A stretch of 37,358 nucleotides of DNA, from the NCBI GenBank assembly GCA_023430325.1, contig JAEZAU010000123.1:1-37358 (forward strand), written 5' to 3'. Origin of the DNA: Bacteroidota bacterium. Lineage in GTDB: Bacteria; Bacteroidota; Bacteroidia; Flavobacteriales_F; PHOS-HE28. The stretch's first letter is position 1; each line of letters starts with the position of its first letter. The notes beneath the pieces were generated by a model. That model was not told the origin of the DNA. It ran no database searches and saw only the letters and a program-made list of their open reading frames with translations. A program made the translations under genes and the position numbers. Shown here piece after piece: positions 2,665 to 36,803 of the stretch.

Positions 2665-2804
2665 CCATTAAGTTCTGAACAGCGTAGCGCGTAAGGAACA
2701 TGAGTGAAAAGCCCGGAAGCCTTCTTAGGCTCAGGACTTGCAACATTGGCCCGGCCCCTTTTCGTGCTGGCCCACGCCAGCGCGAAAAGGGGATACGCCC
2801 AAAA
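2665..2804 (+). repeat. Solo arm of the structured intergenic repeat family (copy C)
   Basis: Core 1 gtgaaaagcccggaag is at 2704-2719. A hairpin AGCCT-tctt-AGGCT is at 2718-2731. Core 2 caggacttgcaa is at 2732-2743, followed by ttggcccgg. A 16-bp hairpin pairs 2755-2770 with 2777-2792 (one G.U). The end motif acgcccaa is at 2795-2802. It aligns position by position with 29432-29545. The left boundary is uncertain. Confidence 0.7.
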
Positions 2805-5943: not shown

Positions 5944-5987
5944 AGGCCCGAAAAGTACCAATTACCCACATCTGCCGTTGCACCTAT

Positions 5988-5995
5988 TAGCTTTG
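5988..5995 (+). promoter_or_regulatory. Bacteroidota -7 type promoter-like motif TAGCTTTG
   Basis: Exact TAnnTTTG match, 14 nt upstream of the ATG at 6009. A TTG at 5978-5980 is a weak -33 candidate. Confidence 0.4.
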
Positions 5996-6008
5996 CATAC
6001 GAAGCGGC

Positions 6009-6761
6009 ATGCGCCTAACATTATTCACGATCGGTCTTCTCCTGCTTGCTTTCCAAGGTGTTGGGCAGCAGACCATCTATGATGAAGCCCGTGTGCTCTA
6101 CCGGAAGGAACTTCTTGGCGGTGCAACGATACATGGTGATGGTTGGGGCGTCAATTTCTTTCACGGGAAACACCGCAATGCAAAAGATCGCCGAATGCTG
6201 GGCGTGGAGATCGTGAGCATGAAGCATCCCAAGGAGATCAAGAGCTTCAATCCCTATTACGAGGATTCACGCGGATACTTCTTCGGCAAGCAGAATTCGT
6301 TCATCATAGTGCGCCCTACTTACGGCCGCAAACACCAGATCACGGACAAGATCCGCCGCAGTGGCGTGGAGGTGAATTATGTATGGGGGATCGGTCCATC
6401 TTTGGGGCTATTGAAACCCGTTTATCTGCAGATCGGCAAACCCGATCAGTTCCCTTATGAATCCATCGCGATAGAGCGGTATGATTTCACCCAGCACAAC
6501 GTTCACAATATCTACGGCCGGGCCACCTGGTTCCGCGGGGTAGGGGAAATGAATTTCGTGGCGGGCGTTTTCGGCAAGTTCGGGTTCAACTTCGAACATA
6601 GCGGCCAGGCCGCGGGCATCAAGGCGATCGAAGTCGGGGCTACAGTAGATGCTTATCCTGAGCCGGTGCCCATCATGGCCCAGATGGAAGGGGTGAAGAA
6701 CAAAGCGCTCTTTTTCGGATTCTACATCTCGGTGCAATTTGGGAAGAAGTTCATTTCATGA
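6009..6761 (+). CDS. Secreted hypothetical protein
   Basis: Signal peptide [21 protein letters not shown]. Aromatic- and Gly-rich, possibly a beta-barrel-like composition. No catalytic motif recognised. Its stop overlaps the lipA start as ATGA (6758-6761). Confidence 0.6.
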
Positions 6762-8863: not shown

Positions 8864-10011
<1,148 letters not shown>

Positions 10012-10024
10012 TGTCGGAGAATGG

Positions 10025-10041
10025 ATCAGGAATTAGGAATT
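10025..10041 (-). repeat. Inverted copy of two heptamer units (hairpin partner of the array)
   Basis: atcaggaattaggaatt at 10025-10041 is the perfect reverse complement of 9967-9983 (aattcctaattcctgat). This gives a 17-bp stem with a 41-nt loop. It contains the lpxH stop codon (TAA, 10033-10035 on the minus strand). Confidence 0.85.
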
Positions 10042-10845
10042 GAGTTCCGTTGCCGGTGCTCCCGTGATCCGTTCATCATCGTTCACGCTACCATCGGTCA
10101 TCCGCTTCATCAATCGGGTCTGATCTCCGTCGAAGATCGCGTAAGTATAGTAGCTGATCCAGTCGCCGAGGTTGATGTAACGGCTGCCGGGTTGCACTTC
10201 CATATCGATCGGGAGGTGGCGGTGGCCGAAGATCAGGTAGTCGAAATGTTCCTTTGCCAGTCGCTCTTTGCTGTATTGCACGAGCCATTCCTTCTGTTCA
10301 CCCAGCCATTTACGATCGTTCTCGTAGCTCTTCTTCCGGCTGCGGCCGCTCCAAAAGTTGCCCATGCCCAGGCCGAAATTCGGATGCAATCTCGCGAAAA
10401 GCCATTGGCAGACCGGGTTGCGGAACACCGACTTGATGAACTTGTATCCGTGATCTCCCGGGCCCAATCCATCTCCATGTCCGATCAGGAAATGCTTGCC
10501 GTTCCATTCGCGAACGATCGGCTCACGGTGCAATTGAACGCCGGTCTCTTTCGGTATGTAATCGAAGATCCACATGTCGTGGTTGCCGATGAAGAGATGG
10601 ACCGGGATGCCGCGATCGCTGAGTTCGGCGAGTTTGCCAAGAAGCCTTACGTGGCCACGAGGAACCGCGTGTTTGTACTCGAACCAAAAATCGAAAAGAT
10701 CGCCAAGCAATAAGATCTCCGCGGCATCCTTTGAGGCTTCTTCGAGGAAGGCTACGATGCGTTTTTCACGCGCGAGACTTGAGGCGGCATCTGGAATGCC
10801 GAGGTGGAAGTCGCTAAGGAAATAGATCTTCTGCCCGGGCCGCAT
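10033..10845 (-). CDS. lpxH: UDP-2,3-diacylglucosamine diphosphatase (LpxH-type metallophosphoesterase)
   Basis: Calcineurin-like motifs in order: IYFLSDFHLG, LLGDLFDFWFEY, GNHDMW, GHGD, FGHRH. The DLFDFW segment and 270-aa size fit LpxH rather than a generic phosphoesterase. Its ATG shares one nucleotide with the upstream stop (TGATG). Confidence 0.75.
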   Translation of the reverse strand: MRPGQKIYFLSDFHLGIPDAASSLAREKRIVAFLEEASKDAAEILLLGDLFDFWFEYKHAVPRGHVRLLGKLAELSDRGIPVHLFIGNHDMWIFDYIPKETGVQLHREPIVREWNGKHFLIGHGDGLGPGDHGYKFIKSVFRNPVCQWLFARLHPNFGLGMGNFWSGRSRKKSYENDRKWLGEQKEWLVQYSKERLAKEHFDYLIFGHRHLPIDMEVQPGSRYINLGDWISYYTYAIFDGDQTRLMKRMTDGSVNDDERITGAPATELNS

Positions 10846-21665: not shown

Positions 21666-21689
21666 GCCTTTTTACCGATCGAAATAATG

Positions 21690-21720
21690 AAAGGCCCGTG
21701 CATGCGGGCCTTTTTCTTTT
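21690..21720 (+). terminator. Rho-independent terminator of the Nif3/zinc-ribbon operon
   Basis: AAAGGCCCG tgcatg CGGGCCTTT forms a 9-bp stem (21690-21698 with 21705-21713), followed by TTTTCTTTT. It lies 25 nt after the stop codon. Confidence 0.85.
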
Positions 21721-22045
21721 GGACGTGTCCCTCCGCACGCTACGGGTCAGGCTATCCGCTGTACTCCTCCTCCCTACGGTCGTGCGGGGTGCCGCTCCTA
21801 TCCTTCACGCGCGGTGCTGGCCAGGTGATCGGTATCGATCCGTCATTCCAGGTTCCTTCTGGGATCCCGGTATCTCAAACGCGATCACGGGTTCATTGGC
21901 CGGTATGACAGGATCTGCGTAAGTGGCGCAGGCGGAAAGCCCGCAACCTCACTCCAGCCCTCTCCCGTGGAGCGGGAGCGAAGCAGAAAAAGATCATTGT
22001 GAGGACTTGCAGCCGTAGCCACGTCCTGGCAGGAATTCGCCCGAA
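21721..22045. repeat. Composite inverted-arm copy of the structured intergenic repeat family (copy A: arm A2 on minus strand at left, arm A1 on plus strand at right)
   Basis: 21912-21946 is the reverse complement of 29258-29292 with one mismatch in 35 nt. Weaker collinear similarity to the reverse complement of 29198-29545 runs along the whole interval. Shared features include cores gcggaaagcccgcaa (21932-21946) and gaggacttgcag (22001-22012), end motif cgcccgaa (22038-22045) and a left-arm stem pairing 21733-21739 with 21781-21787. The terminator at 21690-21720 may be the diverged outer hairpin of arm A2. Confidence 0.7.
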
Positions 22046-22067
22046 GCGAACGGAGAAGTGCGTTCGA

Positions 22068-29127: not shown

Positions 29128-29197
29128 GGCCGCAAAGGTGGTGAAATGAAGAATGTGCTCCGGAGGAAAGGTGATGAAGTGGAAATTCTCATCAGTA

Positions 29198-29545
29198 TTA
29201 GGGCGAATTATCGGCAAGGCGTGGCTTCGCCTTCAAGTCCGCGGTCGCTTCGCGCCCTTGCGGGCTTTCCGGCTGCGCCACTTACGCAGATCAGCTGCAG
29301 GCCAGTATGGAACCGGTCCTTGATCCAAAAAGAACATAATATCGACCACTTGTCCTTCATGGATCGATCTGCCGATCCACATGGTCAACGCCGATCGATA
29401 TCACCGGACCTCATGCTCTGGCCATGCGCCAGCGTGTTAGGGACATGAGCGGAAAGCCCGCAAGCGAGGCTTTGCGAGTGCGGACTTGGAGCGTTGGCCC
29501 GACCCGCGCTCGCTGGAATTCCAGCGAACGCGGGTAACGCCCGAA
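29198..29545. repeat. Composite inverted-arm copy of the structured intergenic repeat family (copy B: arm B1 on minus strand 29198-~29390, arm B2 on plus strand ~29432-29545)
   Basis: B1 (minus strand): core 1 at 29257-29272, hairpin at 29243-29256, core 2 at 29231-29242, end ttagggcg at 29198-29205. B2 (plus strand): gcggaaagcccgcaag at 29449-29464, stem pairing 29458-29462 with 29479-29483, gcggacttggag at 29480-29491, hairpin pairing 29503-29516 with 29521-29534, end cgcccgaa at 29538-29545. It fills most of the 456-nt divergent GT4/flippase intergenic region. Confidence 0.75.
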
Positions 29546-29583
29546 CCACCGTTAAGAATGAAGCTGCCATCTTCGCGCCCGGT

Positions 29584-31008
29584 ATGCGGCGAACGTTCCT
29601 GACCAACCTGGCCCTGCTGCTGGTGCTCAACCTGCTGGTGAAACCCTTTTACATATTGGGTATAGATGCGGGTGTACAGGTTGCCGTAGGCGCTGATGAG
29701 TATGGTCTTTACGCGGCGCTGCTGAGCTTGAGCTTTCTGCTGAACATCCTGCTTGATGTAGGGTTGACCAATTTCAACACCCGGCATATAGCCCAGCATA
29801 CGCACCTGATCGGAAAGTATTTCAGCGGCATCATCGGCGTGCGTGTCCTGCTGGCCCTGGTGTACGCGGCAGTGACGATCGTGGCGGGGCTGCTATTGGG
29901 TTATGGTGGCCGGCAGCTCGAGTTATTGGGTGTGCTCGTGCTGAACCAGGTACTTGTGGCCACCATTCTCTATCTGCGGAGCAACATTGCGGGCGCACAG
30001 CGCTACCGGCAGGACAGTTTTTTGAGCGTGGTGGATCGCGTGTTGTTGATCGTTGGTGTCGGCTGGTTGCTCTGGTTCTCAGGTGTGCCGTTCCGGATCG
30101 AATGGTTCATCTGGGCGCAGACGGTCGCTTATTTGGTGACGTTACTTATCGCCCTTGTGCTGGTCTTGAGGTTGAGTGGCAGAGTGAAGCTGCAATGGAG
30201 ACCGGCATTCAACCTGTTGATCCTGCGGCAGAGTTTCCCGTACGCCCTGCTGATACTGTTGATGACCTTCTATTACCGAACGGATACCCTGATGCTGGAA
30301 CGTATGGCGGGTGAGCGCGAAGCGGGGATCTACGCACAGGGTTTCCGCTTCTTCGAGGCTTTGAACATGCTCGGTTATCTGTTCGCCGGATTGTTGTTGC
30401 CCATGTTCAGCCGCATGTTGAAGAACAGGGAGAAGGTGAATGACCTGGTGGCAGTGGCGCTGCGGCTGGTGCTGGCCGGCTCAGTGGCCGTGGCGATCTT
30501 TGGAAGTTGGTATTCCAATGATATCATGGAACTTCGCTACACCGAACATACCGATCGCTCCGCTGGAGCGTTCGCCGTGCTCATGTGGTGCTTCGTAGCG
30601 GTCACTCTCACTTACATCCATGGAACGTTGCTCACGGCTTCAGGCCAACTCTCCACGCTGAATTGGATCGCCGCTGGAGGTGCCTTATTGAATATTGTCC
30701 TGAACCTTGTGCTCATACCCCGTTCTGCATCGGAAGGGGCGGCATGGGCCAGTCTGGCCACCCAATGGCTCACGGCACTGGCGCAGATCTACATTGCATA
30801 TCGCATCTTTGCCCTGAGGGAGCTTTTTCCCGTGATACTGCGGGCGTTGCCTTATTTGGCGGGGCTTGCCGGATGCCTGTTCGGGCTTCAATTCCTGAAG
30901 TTGGACCTGCTTGCAGTGACCATCTTCTATTTCCTATTCTCACTTTTGTGGGCTTTCTTGACAGGCCTGTTGGGCCGCAAATACCTTCTGAATGCATTCC
31001 AAGGATGA
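29584..31008 (+). CDS. Polysaccharide flippase (Wzx-like, MOP superfamily)
   Basis: ORF 29494..31008. The ATG at 29584 gives MRRTFLTNLALLLVLNLLVKPFY. About 12-14 hydrophobic segments, and the pattern RQSFPYALLILLMTFYYRTDTLMLE is typical of polysaccharide biosynthesis (PST) flippases. The upstream part of the ORF lies in repeat arm B2. Confidence 0.8.
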   Translation: MRRTFLTNLALLLVLNLLVKPFYILGIDAGVQVAVGADEYGLYAALLSLSFLLNILLDVGLTNFNTRHIAQHTHLIGKYFSGIIGVRVLLALVYAAVTIVAGLLLGYGGRQLELLGVLVLNQVLVATILYLRSNIAGAQRYRQDSFLSVVDRVLLIVGVGWLLWFSGVPFRIEWFIWAQTVAYLVTLLIALVLVLRLSGRVKLQWRPAFNLLILRQSFPYALLILLMTFYYRTDTLMLERMAGEREAGIYAQGFRFFEALNMLGYLFAGLLLPMFSRMLKNREKVNDLVAVALRLVLAGSVAVAIFGSWYSNDIMELRYTEHTDRSAGAFAVLMWCFVAVTLTYIHGTLLTASGQLSTLNWIAAGGALLNIVLNLVLIPRSASEGAAWASLATQWLTALAQIYIAYRIFALRELFPVILRALPYLAGLAGCLFGLQFLKLDLLAVTIFYFLFSLLWAFLTGLLGRKYLLNAFQG

Positions 31009-36684: not shown

Positions 36685-36703
36685 GCCGCACATAAGATCG
36701 ATC

Positions 36704-36793
36704 AGATGATCAGAAAATCAGATGATCCCAATGCCTTAGCCTCGACTCTTCGATCGAAGGTTGAGTTCCAATTATCTGATCTTCTGATCATCT
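36704..36793. repeat. Long imperfect inverted repeat (ATCAGA-type units) between tgt and lpxD; probable tgt terminator/structured spacer
   Basis: 36704-36726 pairs with 36771-36793: 23 positions with one mismatch and one G.U. The core agatgatcagaaaatcaga faces tctgatcttctgatcatct. The 44-nt loop contains the perfect palindrome cttcgatcgaag (36748-36759). Confidence 0.7.
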
Positions 36794-36803
36794 CATTAAC
36801 TGA

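Follow-up and report, generated by a model that had tools for sequence, protein, structure and literature searches.

Structured intergenic repeats are known from enterobacteria (ERIC) and from the Bacillus cereus group (bcr1). For Bacteroidetes, a literature search for a described repeat of the kind reported here found only Flavo-1 (RF01705), listed by Rfam since 2010 as a probable small RNA, to which no function has been assigned. Flavo-1 was rated a probable RNA, not cis-regulatory (Weinberg et al. 2010), and its Rfam type is sRNA. In F. psychrophilum, Flavo-1 matches are sense or antisense to transcripts and many of them are untranscribed; that study, the only transcriptome work to have looked at Flavo-1, could not place it (PMC9723704). 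REPs of five species from Table S1 of PMC6006769, assigned to Bacteroidetes RAYT subclass 2.6, are unrelated short hairpins, unlike the unit described below. Here we show that the gap of about 350 nt between the convergent zinc-ribbon and trkA genes of a Flavobacteriales-type metagenome scaffold (210 kb) is not a random spacer, as a first-pass annotation made from the letters alone had already held. It consists of two inverted copies of a folded repeat of about 110 nt, which is present in many copies across Bacteroidota.

Five copies of one unit in the window

The window, that is the whole stretch of 37,358 nucleotides analysed, carries one unit of about 95-135 nt five times, four times in two head-to-head doublets and once singly (Table 1). 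Doublet A fills the gap between the stops of the zinc-ribbon gene (21665) and trkA (22068), which are 402 nt apart. The 3' end of unit A2 (CACGTCCAAAA) adjoins the terminator of the zinc-ribbon gene, and this hairpin lies outside the element and marks its left insertion boundary. Doublet B is flanked by a GT4 gene and by a Polysacc_synt gene whose called start follows the end of B2 by 38 nt. Unit C lies antisense between an Omp85/POTRA-like gene (stop 2809) and a YkuD gene (start 2626).

Table 1. Positions of the repeat units and adjoining features in the window, with covariance model R1 scores.
Feature	Positions	Strand	Description	R1 score
Unit C	2685-2804	+	single copy	50.7 bits, E 1.3e-12
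Terminator-like hairpin and T-run of zinc-ribbon gene	21688-21717	+	basis: sequence; terminator-like sub-threshold Rfam matches
Doublet A	21717-22046		units A2 (-) and A1 (+), head-to-head, 330 nt
Unit A2	21717-21814	-	diverged left arm of doublet A	56.7 bits, E 2.4e-14
Doublet A spacer	21815-21912	.	98 nt, between 5' ends of A2 and A1
Unit A1	21913-22046	+	type-1 right arm of doublet A	37.1 bits, E 1.2e-8
Doublet B	29197-29546		units B1 (-) and B2 (+), head-to-head
Unit B1	29197-29291	-	type-1 arm of doublet B	52.0 bits, E 5.6e-13
Doublet B spacer	29292-29429	.	138 nt
Unit B2	29430-29546	+	most canonical copy	67.6 bits, E 1.6e-17

The homology of the two doublets, first noticed as a near-identical stretch in opposite orientation, was borne out: positions 21912-21946 match the reverse complement of 29258-29292 over 35 nt (97%), and the similarity is collinear across the whole interval, with 221 identities in 284 aligned columns and many gaps when A is aligned to the reverse complement of B. 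The spacers of A and B are weakly similar, with a local score of 21 against a shuffle mean of 14.3, a score reached by 3 of 500 shuffles. Each arm had been described as containing two cores. Core 1 (CGGAAAGCCCGCAA) is exact three times in the window and core 2 (GGACTTGNAG) also three times, always beside core 1, while in arm A2 both have diverged, to GGCACCCCGCA and GGAGTACAG, respectively. The sequence GGAAAGCCCGCAA, at up to 2 mismatches, has 9 matches in the window against 1.4 expected, and none of 100 shuffles reached 9.

That the five arms form one family was confirmed independently, since a covariance model (R1), built from an alignment of 44 non-redundant copies, all of them from other genomes, picks out these five units and no others when the window is searched with filters off (E 1.6e-17 to 1.2e-8); the next match has 14.9 bits (E 0.04). 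Two structural proposals of the annotation need qualifying. The A2 hairpin CCGCACG...CGTGCGG (21733-21787) is not homologous to the hairpins of the other arms; in this alternative pairing, core 1 is matched with the loop of hairpin 2. The putative long hairpin across the whole element is based on a 7-nt match. The earlier description lacked two elements that each unit has, the closing helix (GCGTG...CACGC) and another variable hairpin.

The first hairpin of A1 (21947-22002) contains a nested insert (CCTCACTCCAGCCCTCTCCCGTGGAGCGGGAG...), and a related insert (GGCCTCACCCCCAGCCCCTCTCCAAAAGAGAGGG) is present in the type-1 unit of a related locus (L122), while B1 is without it. In appearance, the insert resembles a further small palindromic repeat that has entered the loop. 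The first hairpin of B1 includes GCGAAGC. In the 3' tail of B1 (29197-29215), a contig from a second sample differs by two substitutions (gataattcgccctaa against gatgattcgcccgaa; L001 against L002), and its GT4 call is two residues shorter. The deposited GT4 call overlaps the end of B1 (29197-29217), and the YkuD ORF runs 120 nt upstream of the signal-peptide start, into unit C (2627-2746). Both starts are probably mis-called. Annotation is thus affected, because gene callers extend ORFs into the units (here at 2746 and 29217). Two runs of heptamers were also seen in the window: ATTCCTG, in 13.4 tandem copies at 9919-10012, just upstream of an ORF (10021-10713), and a TCTGATC-type run at 36701-36796, of a type also found directly after the elements of two other loci (L006 and L106).

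The family, its fold and Flavo-1

The pattern CGGAAAGCCCGCAA N10-40 GGACTTG, scanned against one genome per species, matched at least 119 loci, several of them from the same genome and nearly all from Bacteroidota, which upholds the expectation of a high copy number. The matches listed come from Flavobacteriales, Chitinophagales, Sphingobacteriales and Cytophagales. Neither plasmids nor 2.9 million viral contigs yielded a copy. Conservation extends to the flanks of the pattern, and the unit reads (T)C-GCGTGA-GGGATTGnAG-CGGAAAGCCCGCAA-[hairpin 1]-GGACTTGnAGCGGAAAGCCCGACC-[hairpin 2]-GGCACGC-CCAAA.

The fold of the unit comprises a closing helix of 5 bp (GCGTG/CACGC), two variable hairpins and a rod interrupted by invariant GNA/GNA loops. 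In the rod, the half-repeats GGATTGnAGCGGAAAGCC and GGACTTGnAGCGGAAAGCC pair with each other; variable hairpin 1 is placed at the rod tip and variable hairpin 2 beside the rod, and the purine-rich strand is the folding strand. When 122 copies were aligned to R1, standard pairs occupied 86.7% of cells as compared to 29-43% with the 3' partners slid, and compensatory (two-sided) changes were present at 27 of 28 pairs. The covariation score was 0.33 against at most 0.05 in the slid controls, and a hand-aligned seed agreed. These data vindicate the earlier suggestion that the fold is kept while the sequence drifts. The internal loops place G-N-A opposite G-N-A twice, in columns conserved at 88-98% (105-118 of about 120 copies), together with an A.G pair and a C.A mismatch that does not vary. 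When the five units were folded thermodynamically, on both strands and with RNA as well as DNA parameters, only B2 and C did better than shuffles; sense and antisense energies were alike, so energy alone does not discriminate.

Could the unit be a structured RNA, for example a protein-binding or nuclease-resistant module that is transcribed alone or within neighbouring transcripts and was multiplied by duplication? The strong, strand-specific covariation, the invariant non-Watson-Crick loops typical of RNA motifs, the conservation of the core sequence throughout the phylum and the original rating of the motif as a probable RNA favour this explanation, the chief competitor of the one preferred below, which we regard as possible though rather doubtful. 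In typical RNA families, G.U is commoner than A.C. The unit has no such excess, with 31 G.U against 39 A.C outside hairpin 1. The loops of its first hairpin are triloops of the GNA type, not GNRA or UNCG: among 85 unique first hairpins there was no UUCG and GNRA was not in excess. In the same set, GCGNAGC occurred in 13 (0.9 in shuffles) and CGAG...CGAG, i.e. tandem G.A, in 20 (0.4 in shuffles). Very stable DNA hairpins are characterised by mini-hairpins of the d(GCGNAGC) type and by tandem sheared G.A pairs.

The annotation had recognised no named RNA family in the element, and this has to be revised. Judged by sequence and model scores, the units of the window are a GC-rich, extended branch of Flavo-1, since units found with R1 score on the Flavo-1 model and have the same half-repeats and loops. 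Three R1 matches are themselves Flavo-1 matches above the gathering threshold (L079:1389-1467, 54.8 bits; L085:5145-5226, 46.6 bits; L105:5853-5927, 43.8 bits), and further copies score 28-41 bits. At gathering level, Rfam had no match in the window. In E-value mode, the best Flavo-1 match in the window was to A2, with 27.9 bits at 21741-21826 against a gathering score of 42, and there was none at E<=10 in 29150-29600. No Rfam family other than Flavo-1 matched these units. The Rfam model misses a much wider GC-rich branch.

Gene context, GC skew and related loci

Copies are intergenic and dispersed, with sharp ends and unrelated flanks, as would be expected of a mobile element. An all-against-all BLAST of 844 flanking ORFs revealed no recurrent neighbour gene, the largest family being present at 6 of the 119 loci listed. 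Genes were called with a caller weighted by codon position, the strands of which agreed with tool gene calls in 76-100%; it replaced an earlier longest-ORF caller, with which the G-rich strand had appeared strangely poor in genes. The unit was placed tandem-sense in 36 cases, tandem-antisense in 36, between convergent genes in 35 and between divergent genes in 22. Among low-GC loci, in which ORF calling is most reliable, tandem sense and antisense were again equal (19:19), and net coding direction did not follow unit orientation (46:44). The Bacteroidetes -7 box TAnnTTTG was found in 2 of 154 upstream regions, with no positional conservation upstream, and a T-run followed 14% of copies. By the equal orientations, the coding direction and the scarcity of both signals, the unit shows no link to transcription. 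An independent sRNA gene with its own promoter and terminator was rejected on the count of promoter boxes and T-runs, and an intrinsic terminator because there is no T-run rule and orientation is independent of genes; at doublet A, the real terminator stands beside the element.

These counts also bear on a structured RNA within neighbouring transcripts. Both B units face the flanking genes and would form 5' leaders if promoters lay in the spacer. Against this stand the equality of sense and antisense in tandem contexts, the want of promoter box and terminator, the position of doublet A between two gene ends, the head-to-head spacers of 6-37 nt, which are too small for two promoters, and the F. 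psychrophilum matches that are often untranscribed or antisense to transcripts (PMC9723704). Taken together, the context data point away from the filing of Flavo-1 as an sRNA in Rfam. The excess of convergent over divergent gaps (35 against 22) argues for a mobile element instead.

The orientation of the unit tracks GC skew, not genes. By raw skew, the folding strand was on the G-rich strand in single-copy loci by 60:30, and with the coding-strand effect removed in 42 of 59 (42:17, p=0.0015). The bias rises with skew strength, reaching 14 of 16 (14:2) in low-GC loci with |skew|>0.03, and with related loci collapsed it was 36:16 (older gene caller). The GC skew of the 8-kb locus is used here as a proxy for replication direction, a proxy that gene orientation did not bear out, as called genes were not enriched on this strand (28 of 59 on the G-rich one). 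It is established that the G-rich strand serves as the template of the lagging strand and is single-stranded for a time. The lagging-strand template is the target of IS200/IS605 elements (PMC6006769). The same bias, seen as a leading-strand bias of the unit, would also suit a highly expressed RNA gene.

A bias of this kind would also be expected if the folded lagging-strand template were a host-recruited signal in replication (priming or primosome loading) or in repair, with copies under selection. The ssi signals of plasmids and phages, which are priming or primosome-loading sites, provide the model. The GCGNAGC mini-hairpins of the first hairpin and the orientation towards the G-rich strand, taken as lagging-strand template, agree with such a signal, and conservation throughout the phylum with retention at an orthologous site suits a conserved partner better than a fast-evolving transposase. 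We nevertheless consider a host signal unlikely. Each doublet puts one unit on each strand, copy density is uneven among relatives (see below), and we know of no such chromosomal system.

Related loci gave evidence of both loss or gain and retention. In one relative (L125), trkA (95% identical at amino acid level) is convergent with the zinc-ribbon gene (89%) across a gap of 88 nt that holds the terminator hairpin only, and doublet A is absent. This single empty site fits a deletion as well as an insertion, the two being inseparable as no second empty site was found. The 26 related trkA loci (124 kb) yielded no copy, and neither did L123 and L124. Thus copy density differs widely among close relatives, from 5 in 37 kb here to 0 in 124 kb. 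Orthologous sites for doublet B were not found.

Unit C has a different history. In a locus of the same metagenome with a YkuD 65% identical (L153), a unit (75.3 bits) sits in the corresponding Omp85/YkuD gap, likewise antisense, and both its hairpins have been replaced as compared to unit C and are still paired. Two other loci (L151 and L152, YkuD 64%) have no unit at this site. Retention of unit C points to host-level selection or to very slow decay; over so deep a divergence, it also favours the structured RNA. In the same locus, L153, a weakly scoring unit (23.6 bits; 5978-6134), its rod interrupted by an insertion of 99 nt, lies between GWxTD and SpoU genes, and the equivalent site of the window has no copy.

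Most copies of the unit are single. Where neighbouring copies are separated by gaps of up to 300 nt, all 8 of 8 pairs are head-to-head, both doublets of the window included. A type-1 unit paired head-to-head with a canonical unit also occurs at other sites in two relatives (L122 and L028). We considered whether doublet B could switch the polysaccharide locus through an invertible promoter, with its inverted 15-nt repeats (CGGAAAGCCCGCAAG) as recombinase sites and a promoter in the spacer. The genome is from Bacteroidota, and perfect inverted 15-mers do flank about 180 nt directly between the GT4 and Polysacc_synt genes. Yet the same doublet at site A lies between two gene ends, the spacers of doublets at other loci measure 6 to 295 nt, single copies are in the majority and the pairs covary as an intramolecular fold, which together render a switch highly improbable.

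A proposed mobile single-stranded DNA element and known repeat systems

Overall, the unit behaves more like a mobile single-stranded DNA element than like an RNA gene. Our best explanation, which we hold at an even balance, is a REPIN-like non-autonomous mobile element that folds as single-stranded DNA. The presence and absence of doublet A, the orientation linked to skew and the lack of a link to transcription support it, as do head-to-head pairs like those of REPINs and the DNA-like hairpin features (GCGNAGC, tandem G.A, no G.U excess). The unit would be a non-autonomous element of the REP/REPIN or IS200/IS605 kind, functional as single-stranded DNA on the lagging-strand template. A trans-acting enzyme would recognise the fold, and excision and insertion would proceed without target duplication. 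In this lineage, the head-to-head pair of a type-1 and a canonical unit with its spacer may have become the copied unit, and both doublets of the window (21.7 kb and 29.2 kb) would then derive from such a pair. The data show the family, its fold and dispersion, the head-to-head rule, presence and absence at one site and the orientation bias; the single-stranded active form and the enzyme are what we infer from this pattern.

A DDE-transposase type MITE was rejected, since there are no flanking direct repeats at A, B and C and the single units have no terminal inverted repeats; on reading the sequence, no target-site duplications were seen at these three sites. The first-pass annotation was therefore right that the element does not look like a recently copied MITE, as the copies also are not near-identical. 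In so far as this implied immobility, it found no support, doublet A being absent in a relative and inverted doublets recurring in other genomes. Its suggestion of a RAYT or IS200/IS605 TnpA partner found no support in 1.14 Mb of loci scanned for HUH/Y1 motifs, which gave one RAYT-like gene and no mobilising enzyme for the unit. This ORF (L091:577-1131) has a palindrome of its own, different from the Flavo-1-type unit. The HUH/Y1 gene (L091:548-1131; DHLH ... YIAENP, 184 aa) carries the palindrome GTCGACCCAnTGGGTCGAC upstream as well as within its coding sequence, and thus represents a REP that has entered its own transposase gene. The Flavo-1-type unit that lies 585 nt downstream has no relation to this palindrome.

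Several points count against a mobile single-stranded DNA element: no enzyme was found among the loci scanned, the RAYT-like gene has its own palindrome, the subclass 2.6 REPs of the five species compared are unlike the unit, core conservation throughout the phylum is unlike that of species-specific REPs, and unit C is retained at its site. More tentatively, and a little short of even, we propose that Flavo-1 as a whole is a phylum-wide family of single-stranded DNA of about 110 nt, with a three-way fold composed of GNA and G.A motifs, rather than an sRNA, preferentially on the lagging-strand template, spreading singly as well as in doublets, with a conserved enzyme partner, either an HUH/Y1 transposase or a replication factor. 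If this is true, a large conserved single-stranded DNA repeat system in Bacteroidota implies an enzyme partner so far unrecognised, and the system would be REP-like with a far larger and more conserved recognition structure than any known.

With REPs and REPINs, the unit shares an extragenic location, many copies, a strand-specific fold, absence of target duplication and a preference for gaps between convergent genes, and its inverted doublets appear to be the spreading unit. REPs are 20-40 nt long, have a 5' GT[AG]G foot and differ between species. In contrast, the unit is a three-way fold of 95-135 nt that starts with GCGTG, has no GTAG foot and keeps its cores throughout the phylum; it is 3-5 times larger and more elaborate, with no cognate RAYT among the loci scanned. 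IS200/IS605 elements are similar in their folded single strand and lack of target duplication, and the orientation bias of the unit, judged from the skew proxy, would be consistent with their use of the lagging-strand template. Unlike in those elements, the copies have no transposase gene between them or at their side, the ends pair mutually rather than forming separate left and right hairpins, and no conserved target tetranucleotide was seen at the 5' flank.

Like ERIC and bcr1, the unit is intergenic, about 100-150 nt long and patchy among relatives, with a conserved predicted fold and compensatory changes. However, ERIC and bcr1 are imperfect palindromes or have terminal inverted repeats and target-site duplications, and they are confined to a family or genus, whereas the unit is a phylum-wide three-way fold. 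Integron attC sites resemble it as recombination-type sites that act as folded single-stranded DNA, with the structure kept and a central part variable in length and sequence, but attC sites form cassette arrays beside an integrase, while the units are scattered singly or head-to-head with no integrase nearby.

Flavo-1 remains the closest relative. It belongs to the same phylum, has many copies per genome and no tie to particular genes, and its half-repeats, GAUUGnAGCGGAAA... and GAyUUGnAGCGGAAAGC, form a rod with symmetric 3x3 purine loops. The units of the window differ in being GC-rich, in scoring at most 27.9 bits against the threshold of 42 and in their arrangement as inverted doublets. 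Four features appear to be new: the extended GC-rich branch, the three-way fold in full, inverted doublets that are mobile, and the replication-strand bias. To the rod shared with Flavo-1, the units of the window add the closing helix GCGTG/CACGC, a second variable hairpin and a CCAAA tail, all of which lie outside the 76 positions of the Rfam model.
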